From the sequence record MH051913: a DNA stretch of 64,000 nt. The stretch is one strand, 5' to 3'. Under the pieces are notes generated by a model. It made no database searches and had not been told where the DNA came from. It was given only the letters and a program-made list of their open reading frames with translations. Positions 4,125-63,761 of this stretch are shown here, piece after piece; position 1 is the first letter of the stretch; each line of letters opens with the position of its first letter. This DNA is from Enterobacteria phage vB_EcoM_IME281. A program made the position numbers and the translations under genes.

Positions 4125-4153
4125 GTTTACAAGGTCTATAGACATGATACTAT
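4125..4153 (+). promoter_or_regulatory. early promoter/stem-loop cassette (PeSL-like)
   Basis: GTTTAC, 17-nt spacer, TACTAT; conserved core GATACTATAGGCCTATCAA; palindrome GTCTATAGAC in spacer. Confidence 0.6.
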
Positions 4154-4190
4154 AGGCCTATCAAACCAAACCAACCACATGGAAATCAAA

Positions 4191-4415
4191 ATGAAAACTT
4201 ATCAAGAATTTATTACAGAAGCTAAAAAACACGAAGACCAACTGCCGGTTGTTACAAAAACCTTTGACGGTACATTGGCCGATTTTAAAAAAGTCCCTAG
4301 TGATAGGCTCGCTAAATTGACCGGGAGTATCGGTGAAAAAGATGGCAAGGTCACGTTTTCTGCTCAAGGTACAGCCAATCTTAAAAAACTTTTGAAAGCC
4401 GCTGGCGCAGAATAA
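4191..4415 (+). CDS. internal-protein-like, CTS family (74 aa)
   Basis: MKTYQEFITE|A N-terminus; preceded by early promoter cassette 4125-4153. Confidence 0.6.
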   Translation: MKTYQEFITEAKKHEDQLPVVTKTFDGTLADFKKVPSDRLAKLTGSIGEKDGKVTFSAQGTANLKKLLKAAGAE

Positions 4416-4416
4416 A

Positions 4417-4689
4417 ATGAAAACTTATCAAGAATTTATCGCTGAATCTATTCTTAATGAGGAAGTAAAAATTAACAAATCTGTTAAGACTATGATTGAT
4501 GATATAAATCATCTCTATAACATTGATTTGACTAATCATGTAACTTTAGGCAATAAGCGAAACTTTTTTGTATTTGATACTTCAGAACTTGACCAGAATC
4601 AAATTAACAATATTGAACGTTTTGCTAATGAAAAAGGGTTGCGCCACGAGACGGCTGGTTATAAAAAGTATGCAATTTATTTAAAATAA
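4417..4689 (+). CDS. internal-protein-like, CTS family (90 aa)
   Basis: MKTYQEFIAE|S N-terminus; tandem with two other CTS genes. Confidence 0.6.
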   Translation: MKTYQEFIAESILNEEVKINKSVKTMIDDINHLYNIDLTNHVTLGNKRNFFVFDTSELDQNQINNIERFANEKGLRHETAGYKKYAIYLK

Positions 4690-4691
4690 TT

Positions 4692-4721
4692 GTTTACAAT
4701 GGGCTTTAGTGATGATACTAT
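4692..4721 (+). promoter_or_regulatory. early promoter/stem-loop cassette
   Basis: GTTTAC, 18-nt spacer, TACTAT; GGGCT/AGCCC inverted repeat; conserved leader GAGTGATTGGAGAATAAAATG. Confidence 0.6.
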
Positions 4722-4757
4722 AGCCCTATCAAAACAAATGAGTGATTGGAGAATAAA

Positions 4758-4943
4758 ATGAAACGTTGTGAATTAATTAGAAATGTTACTGCACTGACCG
4801 CCGTTACTGCTTTTGGCTTTAGTATGTTTGCAGGATTCATGTTGGATTTGCTTACAACTTCCGAGAATACAATCTCTTTAGTAGTGGCATTCTTAATTGG
4901 TTCAATCTCTTTCGTTATGGATAAAATCTCTAAAGGTGAATAA
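4758..4943 (+). CDS. small membrane protein (61 aa)
   Basis: Hydrophobic helices; ATG after GGAG in conserved cassette leader (track used TTG at 4746). Confidence 0.5.
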   Translation: MKRCELIRNVTALTAVTAFGFSMFAGFMLDLLTTSENTISLVVAFLIGSISFVMDKISKGE

Positions 4944-5344
4944 TGAACGTTGAATATTATGTATATGCGGATTACGAAAATAATCCGTCTAAAGATGAAG
5001 ATAACCGTTTAGGTGTAGATGCTTTTGAATCCCCTGCAGCGGCATGGCAATGGGTTGAAAGAACTGATATTCCTTACCGTTATATTGAAGTTGTCGACCA
5101 CGCAGGAAACAAGTATCCTAAGGAAGCATATGTTCCTTCCGGAAAGGTAAATTTCCTTTTGTTTGCGGGTGATAATTATTATCCACGCGGCGGGTATACT
5201 GATTTAATCGCTAAAGCCTTCTCTGAAGATGAACTGCGCGATATCATTAAAGAAAACGAGAATAAGCCTCTTTACGGTTCTAATCGTTTTGGCTGGTGGC
5301 AGATTGTTAATGCCAATACCCACACTATTGTAGACGAGGGTTAA
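4943..5344 (+). CDS. hypothetical protein (133 aa)
   Basis: ORF track; ATGA stop/start coupling; no motif recognised. Confidence 0.5.
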   Translation: MNVEYYVYADYENNPSKDEDNRLGVDAFESPAAAWQWVERTDIPYRYIEVVDHAGNKYPKEAYVPSGKVNFLLFAGDNYYPRGGYTDLIAKAFSEDELRDIIKENENKPLYGSNRFGWWQIVNANTHTIVDEG

Positions 5345-5635
5345 ATGTTATACGTTAAGGTTACTAATCCAGAGAATGGCTATAAATCCGATCAGGTTGC
5401 AGCTGAGTTGTTGATTCGAAATTACGGCAAAGATGCTGTGCTTGATGTTCAACAGGTTAATATTGGCCGTAGTTCAAGCGATGTTAAACTCAAAGTTAAC
5501 AGCCAACGCTATAATTCTGTTAACTTTACTTTTTATACGGCAAATGAAAATGGGTTGGTCGAATATGACATCTTTAAAAATCCTTTGAAAATTGCTTCTA
5601 TTAAACTTGATTATATTAATATGTGGCCACAATGA
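5345..5635 (+). CDS. hypothetical protein (96 aa)
   Basis: ORF track; contiguous array. Confidence 0.5.
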   Translation: MLYVKVTNPENGYKSDQVAAELLIRNYGKDAVLDVQQVNIGRSSSDVKLKVNSQRYNSVNFTFYTANENGLVEYDIFKNPLKIASIKLDYINMWPQ

Positions 5636-6108
5636 ATATTAAATTCGGACAAATTATCCCTAAAGGTTATGCAATTGAAATTGAAACCTGGGAAAATGAT
5701 GGCGATAACTATAAAACCCAGACTGTATTTGGCGTAGAAGAACATGAAATCCAACAGTACAAATATATCCTAGAACTTTTCCATGGTTCTCATTGCAACA
5801 ACCCGGATAAATGTGGTAATTCGGAATGGGACGTAGTTAAGCATCTGGTTATTGCCCACATTGAATCGGGTGTAAAATCAGGCCAGTTGACCCCTGAATT
5901 TTTAGATAAGGCCCTCGGTATCCAAGACTTAGAAGCCTTGCTGAATGACGACGAGGAAGAATACTACTTGAATGAAGCCCTTACTGAGCTCCTTGGTATG
6001 GCTTGTGAATATGATGGTGATTTCATCCGTGTAATTTCTTACGTTAAGCTGTATATTATTGAAGAAGAAATTAAAATCCCTGATGTGAAAGCACTTGATA
6101 TGCTTTAA
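5632..6108 (+). CDS. hypothetical acidic protein (158 aa)
   Basis: First ATG in track ORF 5623 (GTG); overlaps upstream stop; D/E-rich C-terminal half. Confidence 0.5.
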   Translation: MNIKFGQIIPKGYAIEIETWENDGDNYKTQTVFGVEEHEIQQYKYILELFHGSHCNNPDKCGNSEWDVVKHLVIAHIESGVKSGQLTPEFLDKALGIQDLEALLNDDEEEYYLNEALTELLGMACEYDGDFIRVISYVKLYIIEEEIKIPDVKALDML

Positions 6109-6237
6109 GAATTATGTGATATTATTACTCTATCATTAATACCCTCTATTACCAAAGGTTCTTCCCTCAAAGAGCCTTTCATAATAGACAAGGTCTATTA
6201 ATCAAACTTACTTTACTTAATTTTATTTGAGGTGTTT

Positions 6238-6504
6238 ATGTTAGTATTAAAATTAGCTTTTTATGACCCAGAAACCAAGACAACAACTACTAAACGTTGT
6301 TCTATTTCATATGAATGCCAATTTGGCGAAGTTGAGACCGACGGCGAGCCCTTTATGGCAATTGCCGATAGCACATTCGCTAAACCAAAAATAATTCCAC
6401 TAGTTAATGCTGCGGCTTATCTGGTTGCTCCTGAAGAAATGACTTATCATACAATTCAGCACATGGCTAAAGATGATAATGCTCCTGCTGGATTTGTAAT
6501 TTAA
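6238..6504 (+). CDS. hypothetical protein (88 aa)
   Basis: ATG preceded by GAGGTG; track start 6232 is GTG. Confidence 0.45.
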   Translation: MLVLKLAFYDPETKTTTTKRCSISYECQFGEVETDGEPFMAIADSTFAKPKIIPLVNAAAYLVAPEEMTYHTIQHMAKDDNAPAGFVI

Positions 6505-6509
6505 ATTAA

Positions 6510-6583
6510 GGCCCTGTAGCTGGACGGTCAAGCGAGCGACTCATAATCGCTGGATGGTGGTTCGATTCCACCCAGGGCCACCA
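6510..6583 (+). tRNA. tRNA with CAT anticodon (Met or Ile2/lysidine)
   Basis: Hand-folded cloverleaf: acceptor GGCCCTG/CAGGGCC, anticodon stem AGCGA/TCGCT with loop CTCATAA, T-arm GGTGG-TTCGATT-CCACC, encoded CCA. Confidence 0.8.
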
Positions 6584-6587
6584 ATTT

Positions 6588-6662
6588 GGATGTGTAGCTC
6601 AGCGGTAGAGCAGTTGACTGTTAATCAATTGGTCCATGGTTCGAATCCATGCATGTCCGCCA
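6588..6662 (+). tRNA. tRNA-Asn (GTT anticodon)
   Basis: Hand-folded: D-stem GCTC/GAGC, anticodon loop CTGTTAA, T-arm CATGG-TTCGAAT-CCATG, acceptor with two G-U pairs, encoded CCA. Confidence 0.7.
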
Positions 6663-6666
6663 AATA

Positions 6667-6742
6667 CGAGGCATAGCTCAGAAGGAAGAGCAACGGTCTT
6701 CTAAACCGTAGGTCGTAGGTTCGATCCCTACTGTCTCGACCA
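6667..6742 (+). tRNA. tRNA-Arg (TCT anticodon)
   Basis: Hand-folded: D-stem GCTC/GAGC, anticodon stem ACGGT/ACCGT with loop CTTCTAA, T-loop TTCGATC, encoded CCA; T4 also encodes tRNA-Arg(UCU). Confidence 0.8.
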
Positions 6743-6945
6743 AACAAGAAACCGGGTCGCTACCGGTAAGTCGTCGGACTGAAGCTCCCTGAATAAGACC
6801 CGACTTTAAGGCGTACATGAGTTGACCTCTTAAAGTCCCTTATCTCACAGCTGAAACGGCGCACCGAACACTTGCCTAGCAGGTGGAACCCCGACAAGGT
6901 TACCCTAGGTGAAAGGCCCTTCCGAAAGGTTGGGCCTTTTTTTGT
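6743..6945 (+). ncRNA. candidate stable small RNA downstream of the tRNA cluster
   Basis: About 200 nt with no ORF, several local hairpins, ends in GAAA-loop terminator; T4 carries stable RNAs C and D at the equivalent position. Confidence 0.35.
6915..6943 (+). terminator. rho-independent terminator
   Basis: GGCCCTTCC-GAAA-GGTTGGGCC hairpin followed by a T7 run. Confidence 0.7.
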
Positions 6946-6952
6946 ATAAATA
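6945..6952 (+). promoter_or_regulatory. late promoter TATAAATA
   Basis: Exact T4 late promoter consensus 27 nt upstream of ATG 6979. Confidence 0.6.
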
Positions 6953-6978
6953 TACAGTAAACTAACTTAGGAAATAAT

Positions 6979-7533
6979 ATGAAACTTTTAAAATATTTGA
7001 GTTGGATTCTGTTGGTCCCACTAGATTTTATCTCTATGGTTCTAGCCGTTATCCTTGCGCCTTTTGTGGTTCCTTTTCATAATAAAAAGACTGGTAAATT
7101 GCCATACGGTTTTGATTGGATGATGACATACGATAATCCAATTGACGGCGATAAAGGTCATATTAAACGTTGGGCTAAAATCAGGAAAATGCCTGGTGGT
7201 GTTTATCTCCAGAGAGTAGCTTGGCTATGGCGAAATAAAGCTTATAACTTTGCTTATCATAAACTAGGCCGTGATTGTAGCTCGGAATTCCATTATCGTG
7301 GTAATCCTGACGTAGAATCAGGTTCTCCTGATAAAGCTCACCATGGTTGGTTGTGGATGTGGAATGATGACGCCTGGGGTGTATTTGCTTCAGTTCCTTA
7401 TCTTAAGGTCGGCGGAATCACATTTTACCTTCGCGTGTACTGTGGCTGGAAGCTTAAGAGTCTTTTGTCTCGTAAAATCCCTAAAGCTATGTTGGCCTTC
7501 CACGTGAACCCGTTCCGGTTCTACAAGAACTGA
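6979..7533 (+). CDS. Trp-rich protein with N-terminal transmembrane segment (184 aa), late-expressed
   Basis: Hydrophobic N-terminus; flanked on both sides by the same terminator/late-promoter module. Confidence 0.55.
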   Translation: MKLLKYLSWILLVPLDFISMVLAVILAPFVVPFHNKKTGKLPYGFDWMMTYDNPIDGDKGHIKRWAKIRKMPGGVYLQRVAWLWRNKAYNFAYHKLGRDCSSEFHYRGNPDVESGSPDKAHHGWLWMWNDDAWGVFASVPYLKVGGITFYLRVYCGWKLKSLLSRKIPKAMLAFHVNPFRFYKN

Positions 7534-7538
7534 TTTAC

Positions 7539-7565
7539 GGCCCTTCCGAAAGGTTGGGCCTTTTT
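7539..7565 (+). terminator. rho-independent terminator (copy of 6915-6943)
   Basis: Identical hairpin followed by T5 run. Confidence 0.7.
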
Positions 7566-7566
7566 G

Positions 7567-7574
7567 TATAAATA
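7567..7574 (+). promoter_or_regulatory. late promoter TATAAATA
   Basis: Exact consensus 29 nt upstream of ATG 7603. Confidence 0.6.
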
Positions 7575-7602
7575 GATAAGTTAATTAACACAGGAAACAA
7601 TA

Positions 7603-8220
7603 ATGAAAACTTACAATGAATTTTTGAACGAAAGCGTTCTGAATGAAGCCGGCGTGCGCATGACTAAAGATATGTGGCAAGCTGCTTATGATAAAATTTC
7701 CGGGACTAAAACCACTACCGAGTTCTTTAAAAACGTTTATGATATGTATGGTTTTGATACTAGTAGCCAGAAAGAATATTACAAAGCTTCCAAAGCTTTT
7801 AAAGATATCGTAGCCGGTGGCTCTACTAAGCCTGCTAAACCTGCTAAAGCTCCTGTTGCTAAACCTGCGGCTCAGCCCAAAGTTGCAGCACCGAAACCTA
7901 CACCTAAACCAGAACCTGTAAAAGAAGCTCCTAAATCTAAAATCAAGTTTGACACCAGCACTATAGTTAAAAAATATAACCAACTGGCTTCTTTAGTTTC
8001 TGAAATCGAATCTGAAACTAAACACCTTGTTCGTGAATTCAACGCTCTTCGTAACGGTCAACACATTAACAACCTGGATACCCCAGACCTGTATCGTCTC
8101 TATCTGACGGTTGAAGGCCTTAAGTATACCCAGCCTATGCGCGAAGAAATCAATAACAAACTTCGCCAAGCGGGCCGCATTGCTGGTGACGCAGCACAGT
8201 TCGAAAAGACTCGTAAATAA
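7603..8220 (+). CDS. internal-protein-like, CTS family, with Pro/Ala/Lys-rich linker (205 aa)
   Basis: MKTYNEFLNE|S N-terminus; PAKPAKAPVAKPAAQPKVAAPKPTPKPEP low-complexity linker; late promoter upstream. Confidence 0.6.
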   Translation: MKTYNEFLNESVLNEAGVRMTKDMWQAAYDKISGTKTTTEFFKNVYDMYGFDTSSQKEYYKASKAFKDIVAGGSTKPAKPAKAPVAKPAAQPKVAAPKPTPKPEPVKEAPKSKIKFDTSTIVKKYNQLASLVSEIESETKHLVREFNALRNGQHINNLDTPDLYRLYLTVEGLKYTQPMREEINNKLRQAGRIAGDAAQFEKTRK

Positions 8221-8225
8221 TGAAA

Positions 8226-8245
8226 GGAGACTTCGGTCTCCTTTT
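8226..8245 (+). terminator. rho-independent terminator
   Basis: GGAGAC-TTCG-GTCTCC hairpin plus T run. Confidence 0.65.
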
Positions 8246-8279
8246 AGGGGGTTTAATCTAAAAATAATTTCACAAAGTT

Positions 8280-8308
8280 GTTTACACCTCCTTTAAACAT
8301 GATACTAT
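8280..8308 (+). promoter_or_regulatory. early promoter/stem-loop cassette
   Basis: GTTTAC, 17 nt, TACTAT; core GATACTATAGACCTATCAAAACAACAGAGTGA. Confidence 0.6.
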
Positions 8309-8343
8309 AGACCTATCAAAACAACAGAGTGAAGGAGAGTAAA

Positions 8344-8607
8344 ATGGATAATTATGGTGAATTGTTTAATTTCTTTATGAAATGCGTTCCTGAAGAATTT
8401 GGTGCTACTGTTAACGATATTAAAGTTATCGGTCCTGAACACCCAGTGTATGAAACCTATGCAGTAATGGGTAATGAAGATGGACAGTGGTATACAATTA
8501 AAGTTGTGATTAGTATGTTCTCAGCTGAAGGCTACGCCAAATCGTCTACCAAAGTTTATCATGATAACGATTTTGATGCGGAAGAGTATTTCAATAATAT
8601 GAAATAA
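8344..8607 (+). CDS. hypothetical protein (87 aa)
   Basis: ATG after AAGGAGAG in cassette leader. Confidence 0.5.
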   Translation: MDNYGELFNFFMKCVPEEFGATVNDIKVIGPEHPVYETYAVMGNEDGQWYTIKVVISMFSAEGYAKSSTKVYHDNDFDAEEYFNNMK

Positions 8608-8609
8608 TT

Positions 8610-8639
8610 GTTTACATGGGCTCATGATTAAGATATTAT
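8610..8639 (+). promoter_or_regulatory. early promoter with hairpin
   Basis: GTTTAC then TATTAT; GGGCTCAT/ATGAGCCC inverted repeat around the -10. Confidence 0.5.
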
Positions 8640-8664
8640 GAGCCCATAATTTGAGGAGAACATA

Positions 8665-9063
8665 ATGAATATCGAAGATAAAGAAATGCAAGAGTTGTAT
8701 AATTCATTAACGCCTGAACAACAAAAAGCTGCCAAAGAATTAGAGAAAGCTCTTGCTTTCAACTTGGCAAAAACTGATTGGGCTGCCATGTATGAAGAAA
8801 AAACTAGATTAGAACTTGAAGCTGCTGAGAGAAATGAATGGATTGTCGAAACCAAGATTTCTGATGGTGGTTGCTCTGTTGAGGTGTCAGCTGTAGTTAA
8901 AGGCACTCATGGCGAAAAATCATGGGGTTGGCATAATGAAGCAAACAAACATATTGTTCTCTCAACGTCAAAAACTTATGGCCAAAGGGCTCCTGTATCC
9001 AAAGCTATTATTAAGCAAGCTCAATGGGAAGCCAATGAAATCTGCCTCGCAAAAATGAAATAA
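8665..9063 (+). CDS. hypothetical protein (132 aa)
   Basis: GAGGAG RBS; promoter cassette 8610-8639 upstream. Confidence 0.5.
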   Translation: MNIEDKEMQELYNSLTPEQQKAAKELEKALAFNLAKTDWAAMYEEKTRLELEAAERNEWIVETKISDGGCSVEVSAVVKGTHGEKSWGWHNEANKHIVLSTSKTYGQRAPVSKAIIKQAQWEANEICLAKMK

Positions 9064-9066
9064 AAT

Positions 9067-9096
9067 GTTTACATCCCTCAGAGGACAGGGTATAAT
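9067..9096 (+). promoter_or_regulatory. early promoter with hairpin
   Basis: GTTTAC, 18 nt, TATAAT; GAGGACA/TGTCCTC inverted repeat. Confidence 0.55.
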
Positions 9097-9138
9097 GTCC
9101 TCATGGATTATAAATCTTAATCAACTGAAGGAAATACT

Positions 9139-9732
9139 ATGAACACTTTAAAGAAAATCGTTGAATTCATCCGTTCTAAACTGGGTACTGCAATGGCTCA
9201 GAACCTGTCAATCGAAGACCAATACACCAAAGCTGCTTCTACCCTGATTGATAAGATTACTGAACTCCAGACTGCTCATGTTAAGTCCGTGAATGAAGAA
9301 AAACGTATTCGTGCGTTGGCTAATGAAAAAGACCAGCTTGCTGCTTCTAAAGAACGTGAAATTCGTAAACTGATTGCCGAAGGCGCTGATGTCCAGGTAC
9401 ATGCTAAACTTGGCCTCCTTTATCGTCGTACAGCTACTCAGCTTCGTAAGAAAGCCGATGATTATATCGAAATGCGTAATGAAATTAAACTGAAGGTCAA
9501 GGAACTTGATGACTCTCGTCAAGAACTGGCTGTTAAGCTCGAGTACATCCGTGAAACTCGTAATATGGCTGCCCTTGGTATTGCTACTGCCGATGATGTT
9601 GTTGAAATCGCTGCACTGACTAAGATTGATATTGAAGATACCCTGCTGCGTGTAGAAACGTTTAAAGGCCCACAAGTTGGAATGGATACGACTTCTGCCG
9701 ATATCGACGACTACATTAATTCACTTAAGTAA
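9139..9732 (+). CDS. coiled-coil protein, possible PspA/IM30-like (197 aa)
   Basis: Amphipathic N-terminal helix then long heptad-like charged coiled coil resembling PspA organisation; weak inference. Confidence 0.3.
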
Positions 9733-9739
9733 TGTTACT

Positions 9740-9762
9740 GGGAGACTTCGGTCTCCCTATTT
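9740..9762 (+). terminator. hairpin / weak terminator
   Basis: GGGAGAC-TTCG-GTCTCCC hairpin followed by TATTT. Confidence 0.45.
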
Positions 9763-9780
9763 GGAGGAGAGGAGAATATT

Positions 9781-10323
9781 ATGAGTTTATATGACGACCT
9801 GATATCAAATATTGATTGGTTTAAGCATAGTGGTCTTTCACATGAAACTAATTCAGTTCTTTATAGAATTCGCCAAGACTTAGGTTATTCCAATGATTTC
9901 TTAAGTCGAACAAATAGCCGTGGATACACTAGCAAATTACCTTTTATCTTTGCTTTAGCTGAGGACCTTTCTTTTGCAGAAGCTTTAGAAATTATTGACT
10001 TAAATCTGGGTATTCAACGAGTGGAATTCGCTGGATTATGCTATTCAGTATACGCTTTAAATGAACCGAGTGATTGTAAACAGCTTGTTGATGCTGACGA
10101 TGATTACCATTTAGTATGCTATTTGATGTTAGAAAATGGTGACCACTTTGGTATGGTCGACCGCCGCCCGAGTTATTCGGATATTAAAAATTACGATAAA
10201 GATGAGCTTATTATTTTGGCTAATGAGTATACATCAGAGATTCGAAAACAACAACGGAAGCTTAATCGTTTTATTGCTGAATGTCGCGAATACGCTAAAG
10301 AGGTTCAAAATGGAGCGGCCTAG
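9781..10323 (+). CDS. hypothetical protein (180 aa) with C-terminal FIAEC motif
   Basis: ORF track; C-terminal RFIAECREY resembles FIKEC tails of 10310 and 14739 products. Confidence 0.5.
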   Translation: MSLYDDLISNIDWFKHSGLSHETNSVLYRIRQDLGYSNDFLSRTNSRGYTSKLPFIFALAEDLSFAEALEIIDLNLGIQRVEFAGLCYSVYALNEPSDCKQLVDADDDYHLVCYLMLENGDHFGMVDRRPSYSDIKNYDKDELIILANEYTSEIRKQQRKLNRFIAECREYAKEVQNGAA

Positions 10324-10663
10324 TCTTTCATCACATGTTTATCAATTGACTGAATATGATATTGGTGCCAATTTATTATTAGGGATTGTTACAGCCATGC
10401 TTGGTGGCTTAATTGGCCTGGTAATGACCGTGGTTATGGCTGTAATCGAAGGAGTCACACCTATTGAGATGGGGTTCTATATGATAATCGCTCCGGCAGT
10501 TGTGGCCTATTTTATCCCTGTTGTGTATGATATTTGCCATACAAACGCTTTGAATGCTCCAATCCGTAAGAGATATGCTTTAGAGATGGCTAATTATAAT
10601 GAGTATGTAAATCAAACTAAACGTAATGACCTTGAAATCTTTATTAAGGAATGTAAATCATGA
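10310..10663 (+). CDS. membrane protein (117 aa) with C-terminal FIKECKS
   Basis: M59 of track ORF 10136, AGAGG RBS; two hydrophobic helices; ATGA coupling to next gene. Confidence 0.5.
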   Translation: MERPSLSSHVYQLTEYDIGANLLLGIVTAMLGGLIGLVMTVVMAVIEGVTPIEMGFYMIIAPAVVAYFIPVVYDICHTNALNAPIRKRYALEMANYNEYVNQTKRNDLEIFIKECKS

Positions 10664-10950
10664 ATAAAATTGAAATTGAAATCCCAGAACACAACGACGA
10701 GAAATCTGCAGAAAAGGCTATCTATGCTCTTCTGAATAAAGTGAATACCATCGAACATGAATGTGAAGCTATTGCCGATAAGTATGGTATCCAATTCGGT
10801 ACCGGTGATTATGGTTCAGGCCGTACATATTATCCTGTCGGTTATGAATGCTCCCAGTGGTTTAAAGATGAAATTGAAAACAACGGCGGTGAAGTTGAAA
10901 ATGGTGTCGTTACAGTTGGTGCTTGGGTCTCCTCTTCGGCAATGTGCTAA
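10660..10950 (+). CDS. small protein, WVSSS-C tandem paralog 1 (96 aa)
   Basis: Ends GAWVSSSAMC; first of five tandem paralogs. Confidence 0.55.
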   Translation: MNKIEIEIPEHNDEKSAEKAIYALLNKVNTIEHECEAIADKYGIQFGTGDYGSGRTYYPVGYECSQWFKDEIENNGGEVENGVVTVGAWVSSSAMC

Positions 10951-10959
10951 GGAAACGCT

Positions 10960-11241
10960 ATGATGAATGATTACCGTAAAAATAAAGAGCTGGCTGAAGC
11001 AGTAAATGATATTCATAAAGCTATTCGTCGTGCTGAGGAAATTGCAGACAAATATGAGACTCATTTTAATATATACCCTGCTCGCGGTATGGGCGGTGAC
11101 TATTATTCTCCTGGCGCCCTGAAAGCCGACCTTGCTCACTGGGAAGAATACGGTGAAGCTCAGTACGCTATTGTAAACCAACATGATTACACTACCAGCC
11201 TAGAAAATGGTGGATGGGTATCCTCTTCTTCTGAATGTTAA
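10960..11241 (+). CDS. small protein, WVSSS-C tandem paralog 2 (93 aa)
   Basis: Ends GGWVSSSSEC; shares ADKY motif with paralog 1. Confidence 0.55.
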   Translation: MMNDYRKNKELAEAVNDIHKAIRRAEEIADKYETHFNIYPARGMGGDYYSPGALKADLAHWEEYGEAQYAIVNQHDYTTSLENGGWVSSSSEC

Positions 11242-11250
11242 GGAATTATT

Positions 11251-11448
11251 ATGTCTCGTGAACTAGATTGTGCAATCCGTACTGCCGCGGCGGCTATTGA
11301 AAACGTTATCCAGATTTGCAAAGAAGAACGTGAAGAAGCTGATATCTATATCGATGGTCAACGTGACCTGGAACGTCATATCACGCTTTATAACGGTTGT
11401 ATTACTATTAGTGGTACCTCTTGGGTGTCCTCCTCTTACGAATGCTAA
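11251..11448 (+). CDS. small protein, WVSSS-C tandem paralog 3 (65 aa)
   Basis: Ends TSWVSSSYEC; TAAGGA stop/RBS junction. Confidence 0.55.
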   Translation: MSRELDCAIRTAAAAIENVIQICKEEREEADIYIDGQRDLERHITLYNGCITISGTSWVSSSYEC

Positions 11449-11457
11449 GGAAATAAA

Positions 11458-11667
11458 ATGACTATTGATGAAATTGAAAAACAAATCCGTGAATTAGTAC
11501 GTAAAGGTCAGTCCGTGGCTGACGAAACAGGTCAGCACTTCCACGCCGGCGGCGAAGAATATATTCCAGCTTCTAGTCCGGAATATGGCGATTACGAATG
11601 GGCCCGTGATGATTACGGTATTCCTGAAGGTGAAGGTTTCTGGTTTAGCTCCTCTATGTCTTGCTAA
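11458..11667 (+). CDS. small protein, WVSSS-C tandem paralog 4 (69 aa)
   Basis: Ends GFWFSSSMSC. Confidence 0.55.
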   Translation: MTIDEIEKQIRELVRKGQSVADETGQHFHAGGEEYIPASSPEYGDYEWARDDYGIPEGEGFWFSSSMSC

Positions 11668-11677
11668 GGTGATAAAA

Positions 11678-11902
11678 ATGACTGATATTAATGAATTAGA
11701 AAAAGCGGCACTTGAACTGGCTGCACTGTATAAGAAAGTAAAAGATATGGCTTCTGCTCAGGATTTTGGTGTTGAGCTCGACGATTATGACGGTGAAGTT
11801 CGTCTCGAAGATTGGCTGAATAGTTCTTGTTATGGTGAAGAAGCTGGTCGTACCTTCGTTGCTCGTGCCGATGGTAAAATCTGGTACCCAAGCTCATGCT
11901 AA
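11678..11902 (+). CDS. small protein, WVSSS-C tandem paralog 5 (74 aa)
   Basis: M32 of track ORF 11585; ends KIWYPSSC. Confidence 0.5.
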   Translation: MTDINELEKAALELAALYKKVKDMASAQDFGVELDDYDGEVRLEDWLNSSCYGEEAGRTFVARADGKIWYPSSC

Positions 11903-12123
11903 AATTGAAAAAACGATACATTCGTAAAATAAATGGTCTTCGCGATTATGCCAAAGGTTGGCCACTAAGTATTATTATGGCTGATAGACACCCACGTTAT
12001 AATACTGAGATGACTTATTACAAAAAGTACGATTCATATTGTCGGTCTAAAGCGGGTCGTTTAGATGGTTCTTATGAGGACTATTTTGGTAAAAAACCTA
12101 CTCGTGTTTCGTTAGGAAAATAA
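11896..12123 (+). CDS. hypothetical basic protein (75 aa)
   Basis: ORF track; start unclear. Confidence 0.3.
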   Translation: MLKLKKRYIRKINGLRDYAKGWPLSIIMADRHPRYNTEMTYYKKYDSYCRSKAGRLDGSYEDYFGKKPTRVSLGK

Positions 12124-13757: not shown

Positions 13758-13786
13758 GTGTACAAGGTCTATAGGTGTGATACTAT
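13758..13786 (+). promoter_or_regulatory. early promoter/stem-loop cassette
   Basis: GTGTAC, 17 nt, TACTAT; GGTCTATAG/CTATAGACC inverted repeat; near copy of 4125-4153. Confidence 0.55.
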
Positions 13787-13823
13787 AGACCTATCAAAAC
13801 AACAGAGTGAAATGGAGAATAAA

Positions 13824-14039
13824 ATGAAACTTTCTAACCAAGCAATCAACATGTTAAACGAAGTTCGTGCAGCTGGTGCTAAATGCCTGATGGTTAACAC
13901 TCGTGACGGTGACCTTCGTCAAGCATTTGGTGAATTGAAATCTGCTGACCTGGTTAAATGTTCAGTTGGTATTGGTAACGCACTTCGTGTATCCTTATCC
14001 CCTAAAGGTAAAATGTACTTTTCAACAAAAAGTAAGTGA
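13824..14039 (+). CDS. hypothetical protein (71 aa)
   Basis: ATG after GGAG in cassette leader (TGGAGAATAAAATG). Confidence 0.5.
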   Translation: MKLSNQAINMLNEVRAAGAKCLMVNTRDGDLRQAFGELKSADLVKCSVGIGNALRVSLSPKGKMYFSTKSK

Positions 14040-15559: not shown

Positions 15560-16001
15560 GAAAGCTAAGGAATTATCGGCAGGTATTTTATTCATGACCG
15601 TTGATAAAGAACTGGTCATGGGCCGTGTAACAGGCTCTCGTAATCCAGAGAACATGCGTCATAAATGGGACATTCCTAAAGGTCATGTCGAACCAGGCGA
15701 AGAGCCTATTCAAGCGGCAATGCGTGAAACCGAAGAAGAGATTGGATTCACAGCATACGATCCTGCATTCCTGAAAGACCTAGGTGAGTTCAAATATTCA
15801 AGCAATAAGAATCTACATCTGTTCTTATATACAGTGCCTGTGGAACACGAGCAGTTCAAGGATTGCAAATGTACGGCTTACCATACGTTCCCTGATGGTC
15901 GTACTATTCCTGAATTCGATGCGTTCGCCTTGATTAAACGTCCGCAATGGGAATATGTCATGGGTAAGTCGATGTTTAAGGTTTTAGATTCGCTCTTTTG
16001 A
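15552..16001 (+). CDS. nudE: Nudix hydrolase
   Basis: Nudix box GHVEPGEEPIQAAMRETEEEIG; position immediately upstream of lysozyme as T4 nudE; M36 of track ORF. Confidence 0.8.
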   Translation: MGKKAKELSAGILFMTVDKELVMGRVTGSRNPENMRHKWDIPKGHVEPGEEPIQAAMRETEEEIGFTAYDPAFLKDLGEFKYSSNKNLHLFLYTVPVEHEQFKDCKCTAYHTFPDGRTIPEFDAFALIKRPQWEYVMGKSMFKVLDSLF

Positions 16002-16009
16002 TATAAATA
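16002..16009 (+). promoter_or_regulatory. late promoter TATAAATA for gene e
   Basis: Exact consensus 23 nt upstream of ATG 16032, followed by ACCTCCT/AGGAGGT inverted repeat that covers the SD. Confidence 0.6.
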
Positions 16010-16031
16010 CCTCCTATACTCAGGAGGTATT

Positions 16032-16526
16032 ATGGATATTTTTGATATGTTACGTCAAGACGAAGGTCTTGATTTAAATCTTTATAAAGACACTGAAGGT
16101 TATTGGACTATTGGTATTGGCCAGTTAGTTACCAAGAACCCATCTAAAGATGTTGCTCGTGCTGAACTTGATAAGCTTATGGGCCGAGTTTGTAATGGTC
16201 GTATTACTATGGCTGAAGCCGAACAACTCTTTAACCGATCGGTTGAAAATGCTCGTAGAGCTATTCTGCGTAATCCTAAATTGAAACCTGTTTACGATGT
16301 ATTGGACGAAGTTCGTCGTTGTGCTTTAATTAACATGGTCTTCCAAATGGGTGAAGCAGGTGTAGCAGGGTTCACTAACTCTTTACGTATGCTCCAACAG
16401 AAACGTTGGAACGATGCGGCAGTTAACCTGGCTCAATCCCGTTGGTATAAACAAACCCCTAATCGTGCTAAGCGCGTGATTTCAACATTTAAAACAGGTA
16501 CTTGGAAAGCATATGAAAACTTATAA
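16032..16526 (+). CDS. e: endolysin (T4 lysozyme e)
   Basis: 164 aa; [56 protein letters not shown] near-collinear with T4 lysozyme. Confidence 0.95.
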
Positions 16527-16911: not shown

Positions 16912-16940
16912 GTTTACTTCTCCTGTAGGCATGATACTAT
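16912..16940 (+). promoter_or_regulatory. early promoter/stem-loop cassette upstream of denV
   Basis: GTTTAC, 17 nt, TACTAT; CTCCTGTAG/CTACAGGAG inverted repeat includes the SD. Confidence 0.65.
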
Positions 16941-16969
16941 AGACCTATCAACTACAGGAGATTAAAAAA

Positions 16970-49267: not shown

Positions 49268-49297
49268 CCTTCCTATCAACTACATGAGGAAATTATA

Positions 49298-54537: not shown

Positions 54538-54614
54538 TGCTGTAGCTGTGAAGTGATATAATTACCCTATCTTAAAACGTGAGAAAAATATAATGATGCC
54601 TATGGAAAAATATA

Positions 54615-56109: not shown

Positions 56110-57533
56110 AAACTATTTTGGCTCAACTGCTAGGCAATAGTGATTATTTCACTAAGGTCTGGCCTTATATGAATGATTCTTATTTTGACCAGGGTCCGGC
56201 AAAGACCCTTTTCAAAGAAATCAAAAAACATGTCAATGAATATAATGCGGTGCCTTCTAAAAATGCTTTGAGTATTGCATTAGATAACAGCACCCTTTCA
56301 GAAGTTGAACATCAAGGAGCTAAAGAGCTTTTAAATTCTCTGAATGCAGGCCCTGAAGACCAAGAATGGTTGGTTAAAGAGACAGAGAAATATGTTCAGA
56401 AGGCAGCGATGTATAATGCCACTTCAAAAATTATTGAAATTCAAACTAATGCAGACCTTCCGGTTGAGCAACAAAATAGAAAACTCCCAGGTATTGGTGC
56501 TATTCCAGATATCATGCGTGATGCATTATCGATTTGTTTCGATTCTGAATTAGGCCACGACTGGATGGATGACTATGAAGAACGTTTTAAAAGTTATTCT
56601 GATAAAGCCTGTAAGGTTCCATTCCGTCTTAATATTCTGAACAAGATTACTAAGGGTGGCGCTGAGTTTGGTACTGAAAACGTATTGTTGGCAGGAACAA
56701 ACGTAGGTAAGTCTCTTGGACTGTGTTCATTGGCTGCTGATTACCTTCAATCAGGTTATGATGTTCTTTATATCTCCATGGAGATGGCAGAGGAAGTATG
56801 TGCTAAGCGTATCGATGCTAACCTTCTGGATGTATCACTGGATGATATCGATGATGGTCACGTCTCATGGCCTGAATATAAAGCTAAGATGGATAAGTGG
56901 CGTTCAACTGCTACTTTAGGTCGTTTAAAGATTAAACAGTACCCTACTGGTGGTGCTAATGCCGATACATTCCGTGCATTATTAAACGAATACAAGCTCA
57001 AACAAAACTTTGTCCCACAGGTCGTTATCGTCGACTACCTGGCCATCTGTGCATCTTCTCGTACGAAAGTTTTCTCTGAAAACAGTTACGGATTGATTAA
57101 GATGGTTGCTGAAGAACTACGTGGGCTTGCAGTAGAGAAGAAATTATTGCTGTGGACGGCAGCCCAGACTACTCGTGGTGCGAACGTTGCAGCCGAAATC
57201 GATATGGCCGATATTGCTGAATCTTTTGGTATTGCACATACTGCAGACTTCATGTTAGGTGTGGTCGAGACAGAAGAGTTTGCTCAGATGGGTATGCAAA
57301 TGGTTAAGCAGCTTAAATCTCGTTATGGTGATAAGAGCTACTACAACAAATTTAAGATTGGTGTTAAGAAAGGAAACCAGCGTTGGTATGAAGTTGAAGA
57401 CGATTCCAACCCAGGCCCTGTGAACACCGTTCGTGAGGCTACAGGTGAAATGAATCGCCAAGCTGAAGTCAATCGCCAGACACGTGTTAATAGAAGTGAT
57501 TTAGACGATTTAGCAGCATCTATCAAATTTTAA
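56103..57533 (+). CDS. 41: replicative DNA helicase gp41 (GTG start inferred)
   Basis: Walker A GTNVGKS, Walker B VVIVDYL; strong match to recalled T4 gp41; GTG 56103 gives MVETIL (T4 MVEIIL), 476 aa; track starts at GTG 56094. Confidence 0.9.
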   Translation: MVETILAQLLGNSDYFTKVWPYMNDSYFDQGPAKTLFKEIKKHVNEYNAVPSKNALSIALDNSTLSEVEHQGAKELLNSLNAGPEDQEWLVKETEKYVQKAAMYNATSKIIEIQTNADLPVEQQNRKLPGIGAIPDIMRDALSICFDSELGHDWMDDYEERFKSYSDKACKVPFRLNILNKITKGGAEFGTENVLLAGTNVGKSLGLCSLAADYLQSGYDVLYISMEMAEEVCAKRIDANLLDVSLDDIDDGHVSWPEYKAKMDKWRSTATLGRLKIKQYPTGGANADTFRALLNEYKLKQNFVPQVVIVDYLAICASSRTKVFSENSYGLIKMVAEELRGLAVEKKLLLWTAAQTTRGANVAAEIDMADIAESFGIAHTADFMLGVVETEEFAQMGMQMVKQLKSRYGDKSYYNKFKIGVKKGNQRWYEVEDDSNPGPVNTVREATGEMNRQAEVNRQTRVNRSDLDDLAASIKF

Positions 57534-57552
57534 GGAGCTTCGGCTCCTTTTT
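57534..57552 (+). terminator. rho-independent terminator
   Basis: GGAGC-TTCG-GCTCC plus T5. Confidence 0.65.
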
Positions 57553-57561: not shown

Positions 57562-57590
57562 GTTTACATCTCCTATAGGCATGATACTAT
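57562..57590 (+). promoter_or_regulatory. early promoter/stem-loop cassette
   Basis: GTTTAC, 17 nt, TACTAT; core GCATGATACTATAGACCTATCAAC identical to 16912 copy. Confidence 0.65.
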
Positions 57591-57614
57591 AGACCTATCA
57601 ACTTGGAGAACAAA

Positions 57615-57932
57615 ATGAAAACTATCGATTGTAAAGCAGAACATAAAGTGTATTACCACGGAAGTTGTAGTGATGCTAATATTGGTAATATGCTTTGTCC
57701 TCCTGAGGAAACAGGAGTTCTGTCTGAAACTGGTCGTAAGAAAAACCTGAATCGTGTATTCTTTACTGAGGATATTGGTTTGGCTAAGATTTATGCTGGA
57801 CGAGCTGCTCGTTCAGTGGGAGGAGAACCTCGTCTTTATCGTGTAATTGCTCCGGTAGATGTGGTTTGTTTAAATGATACTAAAGGCGCTACGGTATATC
57901 ATGCCGAATGGGCCTTCTGTGAGGAAATCTAA
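57615..57932 (+). CDS. hypothetical protein (105 aa), cassette-driven insertion upstream of dmd
   Basis: ATG after GGAGAACAAA in cassette leader (track used TTG 57603); contains HGS, AKIYAG and YHAEW motifs. Confidence 0.5.
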   Translation: MKTIDCKAEHKVYYHGSCSDANIGNMLCPPEETGVLSETGRKKNLNRVFFTEDIGLAKIYAGRAARSVGGEPRLYRVIAPVDVVCLNDTKGATVYHAEWAFCEEI

Positions 57933-58576: not shown

Positions 58577-58606
58577 GTTTACAACGGTCTATGGTAGTGA
58601 TACTAT
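58577..58606 (+). promoter_or_regulatory. early promoter/stem-loop cassette
   Basis: GTTTAC, 18 nt, TACTAT; core GTGATACTATAGACCTATCAACTAATGAGGAG. Confidence 0.6.
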
Positions 58607-58634
58607 AGACCTATCAACTAATGAGGAGTTAAAA

Positions 58635-58928
58635 ATGAAAAAGTTATTAATCGCAGCAATCCTTACAGTAGCATCATGTGGCACAGCTCCAGTTACAGCT
58701 GGGTTGGATAAAGACCTTTGTGAATGGTCTATGACTGCAGACCAAGAATCAGTTGAACATCAGATTTATGCTGATATCATGAACATCACTAAACGTGACC
58801 GTCCTGATATGGTTAAAGAAGTATCCGACCAATTGGCTTCTAGCGGTGTTATGCAGTATAACTATGTTCTGTACTGTGATGCTAATTTCGATAACAAAAA
58901 TATCGTTAAAGAGGTGACAGGTGAATAA
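58635..58928 (+). CDS. putative periplasmic lipoprotein (97 aa)
   Basis: M21 of track ORF; signal peptide with lipobox-like VASC; size and position similar to T4 sp (61.3), positional only. Confidence 0.4.
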   Translation: MKKLLIAAILTVASCGTAPVTAGLDKDLCEWSMTADQESVEHQIYADIMNITKRDRPDMVKEVSDQLASSGVMQYNYVLYCDANFDNKNIVKEVTGE

Positions 58929-59766: not shown

Positions 59767-59928
59767 ATGAAATCTTTTAAAGAAGTTATGAACGAAGATA
59801 TGGTCGCAGGCGATGCTGGTGGAAATCCATCTAATATTGCCTCCGGAACTACCTCAGGCGCAGTCGTCAACAAAGGGCCTGAACAAATCCCATCTAAAAA
59901 GCGTAAAGAAAAATCCGAAAACGAATGA
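59767..59928 (+). CDS. hypothetical low-complexity protein (53 aa)
   Basis: Not in ORF track; AGGAG RBS; Gly/Ser-rich then basic tail. Confidence 0.4.
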   Translation: MKSFKEVMNEDMVAGDAGGNPSNIASGTTSGAVVNKGPEQIPSKKRKEKSENE

Positions 59929-59966
59929 TATAATGGCTCTATTAATTTAGAGCCCAAGGAAAAATA

Positions 59967-62083: not shown

Positions 62084-62089
62084 TTATAA

Positions 62090-62111
62090 GGAACCTTCGG
62101 GTTCCTTTTTT
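62090..62111 (+). terminator. rho-independent terminator
   Basis: GGAACC-TTCG-GGTTCC plus T6 (same hairpin as 26365-26386). Confidence 0.7.
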
Positions 62112-62121
62112 GGTTTTAAGG

Positions 62122-62151
62122 GTTTACTTTCTAAGAAGGTTATGTTAAGAT
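62122..62151 (+). promoter_or_regulatory. possible early promoter
   Basis: TTTTAAGGGTTTAC shared with 57562 copy; weak -10. Confidence 0.35.
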
Positions 62152-62179
62152 GGTCTCTTATCTTATAGAGGAGAATGCT

Positions 62180-62389
62180 ATGTTAAATCGTTGGATTAAA
62201 CCAAATAAAACTTTAGATGAAATTATCGCTAATCATGTATTGAAAAAGTACTTCTATACGCCTTGGTATACCGAAGTTATTGTCCATTCATTTATGATGC
62301 ATGAAGACGGTTCTATCGAATTTAATGCCGAAATCCGTCACGAGACTGATGATATTGATAAAGTTGAATTTAAACGAGGTTTCCTATGA
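62180..62389 (+). CDS. hypothetical protein (69 aa)
   Basis: M11 of track ORF; GAGGAGAA RBS. Confidence 0.45.
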   Translation: MLNRWIKPNKTLDEIIANHVLKKYFYTPWYTEVIVHSFMMHEDGSIEFNAEIRHETDDIDKVEFKRGFL

Positions 62390-62703
62390 TTCGTTGGCTT
62401 AAGAATTTTTTCAAGACCAAACCTGGTGAAGGGGTGGTTCCTATCTCAGGTCTGAAGGAATATGTTTATGTGGGCGATGGTATGATGGAAGAAGTTATAC
62501 GGCAACCTGAAAAAGCAGGTAATGTGGGCCTGGGTGCCCTTCCTTTGAATTCTAAAAAGTTTAAAGAACATTTAGAAGCTCGTCGCACAAGCCATATTGA
62601 TAGTACTCCTATTATGGTTGCGGCTGCTGTTAGTTCATGGACCGGCGATTCGTCTTATTCTGACTCAGGAAGCTGCGGCTCATCGTCCGGCTCGTGTGAT
62701 TGA
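62386..62703 (+). CDS. hypothetical protein with Ser/Gly/Cys-rich tail (105 aa)
   Basis: ORF track; C-terminal [19 protein letters not shown]. Confidence 0.45.
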   Translation: MIRWLKNFFKTKPGEGVVPISGLKEYVYVGDGMMEEVIRQPEKAGNVGLGALPLNSKKFKEHLEARRTSHIDSTPIMVAAAVSSWTGDSSYSDSGSCGSSSGSCD

Positions 62704-62903
62704 TGAAACCTTTATCATGGCTTAAAGATTGGCTAGACCGTCCTGGTGATTATCTTGATGACGGGTGGTTGGACCAAGCTAATGCAGAAATGAAACGCGA
62801 GTCCGAAGAATGGATTCTTAAAGGTATCCGTGAAGAACGCGAAAAGAAATTAGAACGCGAAGCTCTTAGAATTATGCGTGACATCTATGGGGATAAATCA
62901 TGA
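62700..62903 (+). CDS. hypothetical protein (67 aa)
   Basis: ORF track; ATGA coupling. Confidence 0.45.
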
Positions 62904-63067
62904 CTACTGAAGAGGCCGAAAAACAAGCTAAAGAGGCACTGGATTTGCTTCTTAAAATTGGTAGTAAAATGATGGAAGAAAACGAGAAATACATCCAAGA
63001 AAATAAAATTCCGGATGGTCCTTTAGTAGGTAAACTAAAAAGAGGAAAATATAATGAAAGTCTATGA
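62900..63067 (+). CDS. hypothetical protein (55 aa)
   Basis: Not in ORF track; ATGA overlap with upstream stop; overlaps next ORF by 14 nt. Confidence 0.3.
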
Positions 63068-63542
63068 ACTCGAATTCCATGTACGTGATTCTGCCGGACA
63101 AACGCGTCCTTATGATGCTACGGTGTGTCTTATCTTTGTCGACAATGGTATGAATTCTATAACCCAGTTAGAAACACGATTAAAAGATATTAAGCTGCCA
63201 GAAAATATTATGATGAAGGCGTATCATAATAAAAATGTTGATGTTGCTGAAGGTTGTCCTTTTAGCCTGGCTGAAGCATTACATATCAAGGGTTATCGCC
63301 ATCCGGACCCGGATGGCGAAGGAACAATGGACATTTTCTATAAAGATACCGATAGAATGTCCAACGAACGTCTTAAAGGTCGTACTTATCTTATTTCCGC
63401 TACCGAAGACCTTATTGAAGTTGAACGTCAGATTTGGAAGCACTTTGATATTGGATTGCGCTTTACCATGACTGAAGACGCTATTCGTGATGCTAAGGTA
63501 CGAGCTCGTATGTACGAGTACGGTCCTATCGGTGGTTACTAA
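63054..63542 (+). CDS. hypothetical protein (162 aa)
   Basis: AGAGGAAAA RBS. Confidence 0.5.
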
Positions 63543-63730
63543 TGGACTTATTTGATATGTTTGTCATTCCGGACCCTGAGCCTGAAACAACTCAGGAGCC
63601 GCCTGTTGACCTTGTCAACGAACTTGATATGATTATACGGAAGCATGGTTTTAAGTTGCCTAAAGAGGTCCTTAGTGACCTTGCTTCTTATTACTTAGAC
63701 CCTCCACCCTGGGCTCCTTGGGTAAAATAA
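63542..63730 (+). CDS. hypothetical protein (62 aa)
   Basis: ORF track. Confidence 0.4.
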   Translation: MDLFDMFVIPDPEPETTQEPPVDLVNELDMIIRKHGFKLPKEVLSDLASYYLDPPPWAPWVK

Positions 63731-63733
63731 AGT

Positions 63734-63761
63734 TTTACACCTCCTCCCTTCATGTTATAAT
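63734..63761 (+). promoter_or_regulatory. early promoter with hairpin
   Basis: TTTTAC -35-like, TATAAT; inverted repeat covers the SD GGAGG. Confidence 0.45.

Follow-up and report, generated by a model that had tools for sequence, protein, structure and literature searches.

The 64,000-nucleotide stretch of Enterobacteria phage vB_EcoM_IME281 analysed here (record MH051913; the window, in what follows) contains a repeated cassette of promoter and hairpin sequences in front of small open reading frames (ORFs). Judged from their sequence, these cassettes are very probably the sigma-70-dependent early promoters of a JS98-like T4-type phage, many of them with a hairpin arm that would act in read-through RNA only, because this 5' arm is encoded upstream of the site where the promoter's own transcript begins. 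The cassettes are a real and well-described feature; the hairpin analysis is a testable refinement of it.

A search for GTTTAC-N17/18-TAnnnT returned 19 matches on the plus strand of the window and none on the minus strand, with 1.65 expected by chance. Seventeen of these are intergenic and two intragenic (32936 and 35785). Together with two cassettes that carry a one-base variant of the -35 element (GTGTAC at 13758 and TTTTAC at 63733), the total comes to 19 intergenic cassettes from 4125 to 63761, every one on the plus strand. The initial annotation, which had listed about 20 copies of a module of GTTTAC, a 17-18 bp spacer and TACTAT or TATAAT before small ORFs, is thus borne out. A profile search of the window recovered 18 cassettes at E<1e-4 and again none on the minus strand. 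The conserved 19-mer core GATACTATAGACCTATCAA is likewise real, although the nine or more copies claimed for it were too many for exact ones: it is present in 7 exact copies; allowing one mismatch raises the number to 10 and allowing three raises it to 11, all on the plus strand, where 0.06 would be expected. The two intragenic matches (32936-32965 and 35785-35814) are perfect GTTTAC-N18-TAnnnT sequences, and T4 genes 49.1 and 55.5 contain a similar internal GTTTAC-N18-TATAAT (47452 and 41261). These matches represent internal promoters or else conserved codons.

The megablast matches of window positions 4000-12000 are Dhakavirus-type JS98-like T4-type coliphages at approximately 94-96% identity, and the whole window is colinear with the reverse strand of JS98 10000-80000 at a mean identity of 95%. 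Its gene order runs 4, 2, 3, 1, 57A/B, tRNA cluster, e, denV, regB, tk, nrdC block, 49, 55, 47, 46, 45, 44, 62, regA, 43, imm, uvsX, 41, dmd, sp, 61, 56, soc and on to modB, and the plus strand holds nearly all genes. Scanning T4 positions 1-80000 revealed the same kind of promoter before ipI, trna.4, e.8, e.7, e.6, denV, regB, nrdC.10, nrdC.8, nrdC.4, 55.6, imm.1, dmd, sp, mrh.2 and modB. Counterparts in the window stand at the ipI locus, before each of the ten genes from trna.4 to 55.6 in this list, and before imm, sp, mrh.2 and modB. The motif scan of the window and its relatives proposed in the initial annotation therefore places cassettes before the same genes in T4 and in the JS98 group. 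Because these genes carry early promoters in T4, we identify the cassettes as T4-type early promoters.

Aligned on the -10 element, the consensus consists of an A-rich region, GTTTAC, a 17-18 nt spacer ending in caTGa, TACTAT or TATAAT, AGACCT and A(+1)TCAA. The start was assigned by rule to the A of CTATCAA, 7 nt after the -10 element; base 7 is an A in 15 of the 19 cassettes. An extended -10 (TGn) is also found in 15/19, and the 25 nt upstream of the cassettes are 70% A+T, compared with 61% in the window. Leaders from the predicted +1 to the gene measure 18-36 nt, and the predicted common leader GAGTGAxxGGAGAATAAAATG is present at four cassettes (4692, 8280, 13758 and 26406). We infer promoter activity and start sites from this anatomy. 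The T4 early promoters share the GTTTAC -35 element, the 17-18 bp spacer, TGn, TAnnnT, the A-rich upstream region and the start region CTATCAAC, and are known to carry extra consensus regions (PMC2988021). They differ in their discriminator, which in T4 is most commonly ACAACT but AGACCT in the window. Identical core copies are also commoner in the JS98 group than in T4, with the 7 exact 19-mers in the window and about 14 per IMG/VR genome.

The core had been thought more conserved than a promoter needs and a possible recognition site for a protein or RNA. We found no support for such a site: the conserved bases are those of TGn, the -10 element, the discriminator and the start region. Because T4 has the CTATCAAC start region with a different discriminator, the apparently excess conservation is, on the aligned sequences, that of promoter parts homogenised separately in each lineage. 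The same -10-proximal core also occurs away from any GTTTAC -35 element, at 37371-37420, 28390-28420, 59920-59950, 54545-54575 and 6099-6135. Three of these sites (6099, 28390 and 37371) have a MotA-box-like sequence upstream; the MotA-type middle promoter near 37400 carries the core example GATATAATAGACCTATGA. The core is thus not specific to early promoters.

Within the cassettes, the promoter spacer is complementary to downstream sequence. Comparing each spacer with the sequence from the -10 element to the AUG, against 500 spacer shuffles per cassette, yielded significant complementarity (p<0.05) in 13/19 cassettes with a mean z of -3.1. The same test was significant for 11/23 cassettes in T4 and, at p<=0.05, for 48% of 140 unique cassettes from IMG/VR viral contigs. 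Ten cassettes were folded; nine gave z values between -2.7 and -5.7, and 55.2 only -1.2. Three designs can be distinguished. In class A the 3' arm is formed by the last -10 bases and the discriminator, leaving the Shine-Dalgarno (SD) sequence open (4125, 4692, 8610, 9067, 13758, 36208 and 58577). In class B the 3' arm is the SD itself (8280, 16912, 19200, 27806 and 35087; weak at 23323 and 57562). In the third design, seen at modB (63733), the discriminator rather than the spacer pairs with the SD. The cassettes are listed below, with arms separated by a slash and free energies given as dG.

4125-4193, plus strand: cassette before the internal virion protein gene (ipI locus); class A, GGTCTATAG/CTATAGGCC with one G.U; dG -14.8, p 0.004, z -3.8.
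4692-4760, plus strand: cassette before trna.4; class A, GGGCT/AGCCC; its spacer mirrors the AGCCC variant of the core, and T4 trna.4 has AGGGT/ACCCT.
8280-8346, plus strand: cassette before e.8; moderate class B, CCTCCTT/AAGGAG, p 0.03; leader GAGTGAAGGAGAGTAAAATG.
8610-8667, plus strand: cassette before an e.7-like ORF; class A, 13 bp, ATGGGCTCATGAT/ATTATGAGCCCAT; dG -20.5, p 0.002, z -5.0; one base pair reads G-C, G.U or A-U across relatives and T4.
9067-9141, plus strand: cassette before e.6; class A, GAGGAC/GTCCTC, p 0.018.
13758-13826, plus strand: cassette before an orf121-like ORF; -35 GTGTAC; class A, GGTCTATAG/CTATAGACC.
16912-16972, plus strand: cassette before denV; class B, CTCCTGTAG/CTACAGGAG covering the SD; z -5.4.
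19200-19259, plus strand: cassette before regB; class B, ATCTCCTGTAG/CTACAGGAGAT; T4 regB has CCTCTT/AAGAGG.
23323-23382, plus strand: cassette before a 78-aa ORF (orf95 region); weak pairing, p 0.07.
26406-26474, plus strand: cassette before nrdC.10; divergent core GTTATTATGGACCTATCAA; hairpin not significant, p 0.33.
27806-27863, plus strand: cassette before nrdC.8; class B, CTCCAGTAG/CTACTGGAG; T4 has GTTCCTC/GAGGAAC.
30479-30539, plus strand: cassette before nrdC.4; short AAGGA/TCCTT, not significant.
35087-35147, plus strand: cassette before 55.6; class B, TCTCCTCA/TGAGGAGA, z -5.7.
36208-36280, plus strand: cassette before 55.2; class A, GGGACCA/TGGTCC, p 0.014.
49238-49300, plus strand: cassette before imm; hairpin not significant, p 0.31.
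57562-57617, plus strand: cassette before orf34, upstream of dmd; denV/regB-type spacer arm CTCCTATAG (CTCCTGTAG in relatives).
58577-58637, plus strand: cassette before sp (spackle); class A, GGTCTATGGTA/TACTATAGACC, p 0.002.
62122-62182, plus strand: cassette before mrh.2; -10 TAAGAT; weak SD occlusion.
63733-63788, plus strand: cassette before modB; -35 TTTTAC; discriminator GACCTC pairs with the SD GGAGGTC; z -3.8.

Two further similarities concern the cassette of 55.2. Over some 40 nt its promoter (36208-36250) is nearly the same as the T4 motB promoter (7215), although the genes are not orthologous, and its leader ATGGATTATAAAT also occurs in the cassette at 9067.

To quantify occlusion, we computed the cost of opening the SD in read-through RNA and in the promoter's own transcript. 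The values were 10.3 and 2.2 kcal/mol for denV, 11.5 and 1.6 kcal/mol for regB, 13.8 and 2.0 kcal/mol for nrdC.8, 12.5 and 2.3 kcal/mol for 55.6, and 16.2 and 1.5 kcal/mol for modB, respectively. Read-through costs were moderate, at 3.8-5.3 kcal/mol, for e.8 (3.8 vs 0.3 in its own transcript), nrdC.4, orf34 and mrh.2 (4.3 vs 1.1), and the remaining 10 cassettes showed no SD-occlusion effect by opening cost. More than 10 kcal/mol was required at 5/19 cassette genes compared with 4/94 non-cassette control genes (p=0.007). Those four controls include genes e and 49, known T4 cases that serve as a positive control. We infer from these modelled energies that SD-pairing hairpins would block translation.

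The same calculation in T4 gave 8-13.5 kcal/mol in read-through RNA and at most 1.6 kcal/mol in the own transcript for e.8 (8.2 vs 0.1), denV, regB, nrdC.8, mrh.2 (8.2 vs 0.8), modB (12.8 vs 1.1, the -10/discriminator pairing with the SD) and dexA. Strong occlusion (>=8 kcal/mol) is thus common to the window and T4 at denV, regB, nrdC.8 and modB, the last three with different arms, whereas at e.8 and mrh.2 it is strong in T4 only. The claim that the downstream arm of the inverted repeat contains the SD consequently stands for five strong cases, for modB via its discriminator and for three to four weak ones, but seven cassettes use the -10/discriminator instead. Hiding of the ribosome-binding site (RBS) in read-through RNA alone likewise holds up, with covariation and conservation between genera, for something between a quarter and half of the cassettes. 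As a general property of the module it fails, since seven cassettes leave the SD open.

Beside the cassettes, genes 4, e and 49 (423-536, 15937-16050 and 33604-33717) have their SD buried in a hairpin that costs >10 kcal/mol to open. The late-promoter sequence TATAAATA lies in or beside the 5' arm at genes 4 and e; gene 49 has only the TATAAATA-like AATAAATA. From its sequence, gene 4 (GCCTCC...TATAAATA...GGAGGC) looks like the same design as e and 49.

Several lines of evidence suggest that the cassette pairings are under selection. Four fully complementary arm pairs occupy one fixed register: CTCCTGTAG/CTACAGGAG, CTCCAGTAG/CTACTGGAG, CTCCATTAG/CTAATGGAG and CTCCTCATG/CATGAGGAG. When leaders were permuted among 66 unique cassettes, the native arm pairs scored z 4.5. 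The covariation score of 0.258 compares with 0.173 +/- 0.016 for shuffled pairs (0/500 as high) and lies above those of all six slid registers. The arms of nrdC.8 are compensatory relative to those of denV and regB. Moreover, T4 orthologues keep the hairpin class with other arms, with ipI, trna.4 and e.7 in class A and regB and nrdC.8 pairing with the SD.

The strand at which this selection acts can be read from the mismatches. Helices were defined strand-symmetrically, as an energy model that allows G.U pairs would bias a comparison of sense with antisense. Interior transition mismatches were G.U in 65 cases and A.C in 20 (p=1e-6; 26 vs 7 by gene cluster). This excess points to selection on the sense RNA and therefore not to a cruciform or a duplex-DNA operator. 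It is accordingly highly improbable that the repeats or the core act at the DNA level, as a cruciform or as a binding site for a phage protein (for example on AGACCTATCAA). The core is as conserved as the -10 element in information content and inverted repeats do bracket the -10 element, yet the arms differ from cassette to cassette while staying complementary, and a common protein operator was rejected on these grounds. Nor is there a DNA-level rationale for the mutual exclusion of hairpins and terminators.

This exclusion concerns upstream terminators. In the window, UUCG-loop terminators, which the initial annotation had seen before several copies, were located 12-28 nt upstream of five cassettes (8280, 23323, 26406, 57562 and 62122):

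8226-8245, plus strand: UUCG-loop intrinsic terminator upstream of the cassette at 8280.
23285-23313, plus strand: UUCG-loop terminator upstream of the cassette at 23323.
26364-26386, plus strand: UUCG-loop terminator upstream of the cassette at 26406.
57532-57552, plus strand: UUCG-loop terminator upstream of the cassette at 57562.
62089-62111, plus strand: UUCG-loop terminator upstream of the cassette at 62122.

The terminators at 26364-26386 and 62089-62111 are identical 23-mers, AGGAACCTTCGGGTTCCTTTTTT, 36 kb apart and each followed by a cassette.

Among 250 unique related promoters, a terminator within 35 nt went together with a hairpin of z<-3 in 3% of cases; promoters lacking such a terminator had such a hairpin in 41%. 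Collapsed to 141 gene clusters, the counts were 1/19 and 41/122 (p=0.013), and inside the window alone the exclusion was significant at p=0.009. The promoter-embedded hairpins were themselves rejected as canonical intrinsic terminators, as no U run follows them. Only 0-5 nt separate the -35 element from the preceding stop codon in 11/14 cassettes without a terminator, and the 5' arm starts about 8-13 nt after that stop codon. With genes packed this tightly, upstream transcription must enter the promoter, and polymerases would read straight through it.

These observations suggest that each cassette may be a self-contained unit with its own protection against upstream transcription, either a terminator or a spacer hairpin; where no terminator lies upstream, the promoter spacer would have taken on the role of 5' arm in an RNA hairpin. 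For denV, regB, nrdC.8, 55.6 and modB, and more weakly for e.8, mrh.2, orf34 and nrdC.4, translation would then be limited to transcripts from the gene's own promoter. In such transcripts the exposed GGAG and A-rich sequence would be the kind of site that RegB cuts. RegB spares structured GGAG, and regB is itself made from an early promoter and tightly controlled (PMC3014915). The outcome would be a short pulse of RegB, ModB, DenV and others. We tentatively extend this to a rule across genera of T4-like phages, which we rate a little short of an even chance: the spacer of an unshielded early gene serves as a hairpin arm, so that the RegB RNase, the ModB ADP-ribosyltransferase, DenV, NrdC.8, e.8, mrh.2 and DexA are translated from their own immediate-early promoter only, and RegB cleavage makes the pulse self-limiting. 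If true, potentially harmful enzymes would be synthesised in a sharp, self-limiting pulse.

Class A requires a different role. The most likely function of such hairpins is to mark or insulate the end of the message that precedes them, by attenuation or as a 3' barrier; with no U tract and no contact with the SD, this role is a guess. One RB49 stem-loop is known to have cut lacZ expression like a strong terminator (PMC2839356). Extending the idea to every hairpin, so that all would serve the upstream message as an exonuclease barrier at its 3' end or an attenuator after the stop codon and SD occlusion would be a side effect, gives a reading that we consider somewhat unlikely. The position of the stop codon against the -35 element in 11/14 terminator-less cassettes, which puts the hairpin start about 8-12 nt past that codon, the almost one-for-one replacement of terminator hairpins by spacer hairpins, the free SD of class A and the lacZ result all fit it. 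It hardly explains why strong occlusion is shared with T4 at denV, regB, nrdC.8 and modB, in the last three with other arms, and a 9-11 bp helix over the SD must impede 30S binding.

The abutting stop codon could also be taken as a sign of translational coupling, in which a ribosome that ends at the upstream stop melts the 5' arm beginning some 8-13 nt further on and licenses the downstream gene. We regard this as improbable. A terminating ribosome reaches only the first pairs of a 9-11 bp helix, there is no overlapping stop/start arrangement, and coupling is not needed because the genes own a strong promoter.

Several points weigh against the proposal of read-through shielding. The +1 positions were placed by rule and the promoters predicted from sequence. 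A significant hairpin is missing from 6/19 cassettes, two of them borderline at p 0.07, and in three of the six (nrdC.4, imm and, by the spacer test, modB) there is no upstream terminator either. Class A hairpins have neither a U tract nor contact with the SD, and T4 does not share the window hairpins at 55.6, sp and e.6. The 250 promoters are related sequences, and the collapse to gene clusters weakens the exclusivity, although it stays significant. Finally, no description of anti-SD arms embedded in early promoters was found in the accessible literature, where reviews give late-promoter cases only; older T4 work may hold one.

The repeated identical sequence had also been proposed to offer sites for recombinational shuffling of ORF modules, and signs of exchange between copies are evident. 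All four pairings of spacer type with leader type are found on the two sides of the core, as with CTGCTTTAA and CCTCGTAGA combined with ATAAATGAA and ATCTACTGA. Orthologues carry different promoter halves in different genomes at e.8, e.6, nrdC.10, denV and orf34. The orf34 leader in the window is mismatched to its spacer arm, with pairing limited to CTCC/GGAG, and from its sequence the cassette at 57562-57617 looks like a chimera produced by exchange within the core. The first ORF behind the cassette at 4125 (4191-4415) encodes an internal virion protein with an MKTYQEF leader (phrog_8765). This internal protein (IP) gene, which lies between the cassettes at 4125 and 4692, has given way to other sequence in JS98, B01 and CLBP2, and the edges of the exchange fall at the cassettes; the replaced segment, 4191-4689, comprises both the IP ORF and the next one. 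This replacement is the known plasticity of the IP locus. Further breaks lie at 16911, 23375-85, 26391, 58567 and 63730.

Against JS98, Esco_phi_B-01 and CLBP2, 7 of about 50 unique indel edges fall within 25 nt of a cassette. This raw signal was discarded as enrichment with ordinary gene junctions as the baseline: indel edges were found at 6/17 cassette junctions and 26/102 other gene junctions (p=0.39). Most cassettes are old and fixed, because the same genes carry them in T4 and in the JS98 group. The shuffling claim is therefore only partly upheld, with apparent core exchanges and with replacements ending at cassettes on one side and the missing indel enrichment on the other. Recombination among copies probably explains the lineage-specific identical cores, which would reflect promoter and start-region constraint combined with homogenisation; as the reason for the elements' existence it is not shown.

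We find it unlikely that the cassettes are chiefly mobile recombination modules, as Arbiol and Comeau understand such elements, whose core is a crossover site for excising, inserting and swapping ORFs and whose stem-loops are terminators. The four spacer-leader combinations, the chimeric orthologues, the IP swap and a single JS98-type cassette in T4, at denV, would agree with such modules, as would the mini-circles, and the crossovers between the -10 element and the SD, that have been shown for RB49/phi1 (PMC2839356). But positions are shared with T4, the hairpins lack U tracts and indel edges are not enriched. Covariation, the G.U bias and terminator exclusivity are signs of RNA-level selection that recombination leaves unexplained. 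The denV case is an observation in its own right: in the first 80 kb of T4 only the cassette at 65413 is of the JS98 type, with promoter, core and hairpin arms as in window 16912-16972, which suggests from the sequence that the denV promoter was transferred or converted between genera.

Among the closest known systems, beside the T4 early promoters, are the promoter-early stem-loops (PeSLs) described in RB49/phi1, PST/T4 and nt-1/KVP40, which likewise repeat an early promoter with a stem-loop before small ORFs (PMC2839356, PMC4122927); the initial annotation's reference to similar elements in T4-type phages was thus correct. PeSL-like JS98 sequences have been mentioned in passing (PMC2839356). 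In the window, an early promoter and a stem-loop are combined in one repeat through spacer hairpins in 13/19 cassettes and through a terminator hairpin just upstream in five. Similar to the cassettes, the stem-loop of phi1 PeSLs often lies between the -35 and -10 elements or over the -10 element, and exchanges occur within the element. There are also clear differences. RB49/phi1 PeSLs have TTGACA-type promoters and polyG/polyC stems that were read as terminators, whereas the arms in the window have no G/C tracts and no U tract, a conserved subset of them pairs with the SD, and indels are not enriched. The 2010 PeSL paper (PMC2839356) uses neither 'ribosome' nor 'translation' in its main text.

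On the level of RBS control, the cassettes resemble T4 e, soc, 49 and I-TevI, in which an RBS-sequestering hairpin contains an internal late promoter (PMC3014915). In both, the SD is paired in long transcripts with an arm encoded upstream of the promoter-proximal start, which in the T4 genes leaves only the short transcript translated. The window has its own versions at e, 49 and gene 4. Whereas the internal promoter of e-type hairpins is late and expression is delayed, the promoter in the window is early and would confine translation to the immediate-early burst. A further parallel is the fold-back inhibition of IS10/Tn10, reportedly described by Davis, Simons and Kleckner in 1985, a work cited in PMC13181058, in which read-through RNA from an outside promoter is said to hide the translation start. 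There too, the 5' arm is missing from transcripts that start at the element's own promoter, but the gene is a transposase and there is no sequence relationship. Lastly, early-promoter repeats with AT-rich stem-loops flank swappable IP genes at T-even IP loci (Repoila 1994, as described in PMC2839356). The cassettes at 4125, 4692 and 16912 flank such loci in the window, whereas the IP elements cover only two loci.

JS98-like phages have a place in phage therapy work, and for them the cassettes provide a promoter and leader map of unannotated signals. Promoter spacers, usually treated as free, would decide which regB, modB and denV transcripts are translatable, and the near-exclusive relation of hairpin and terminator is a simple prediction for any T4-like genome.

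An Rfam scan of the window returned only three tRNAs at gathering score, and no cassette hit a curated covariance model. Three adjacent tRNA genes lie at 6510-6739, in a position where the syntenic JS98 cluster is annotated as Arg, Asn and Met. Between genes 46 and 45.2, the minus strand carries a 245-aa ORF (42117-42854) that matches the homing endonuclease family phrog_655 (E 1.6e-69). In JS98, Esco_phi_B-01 and CLBP2 its place is taken by a clean 775-bp gap, and the ORF is likely a recent mobile insertion.

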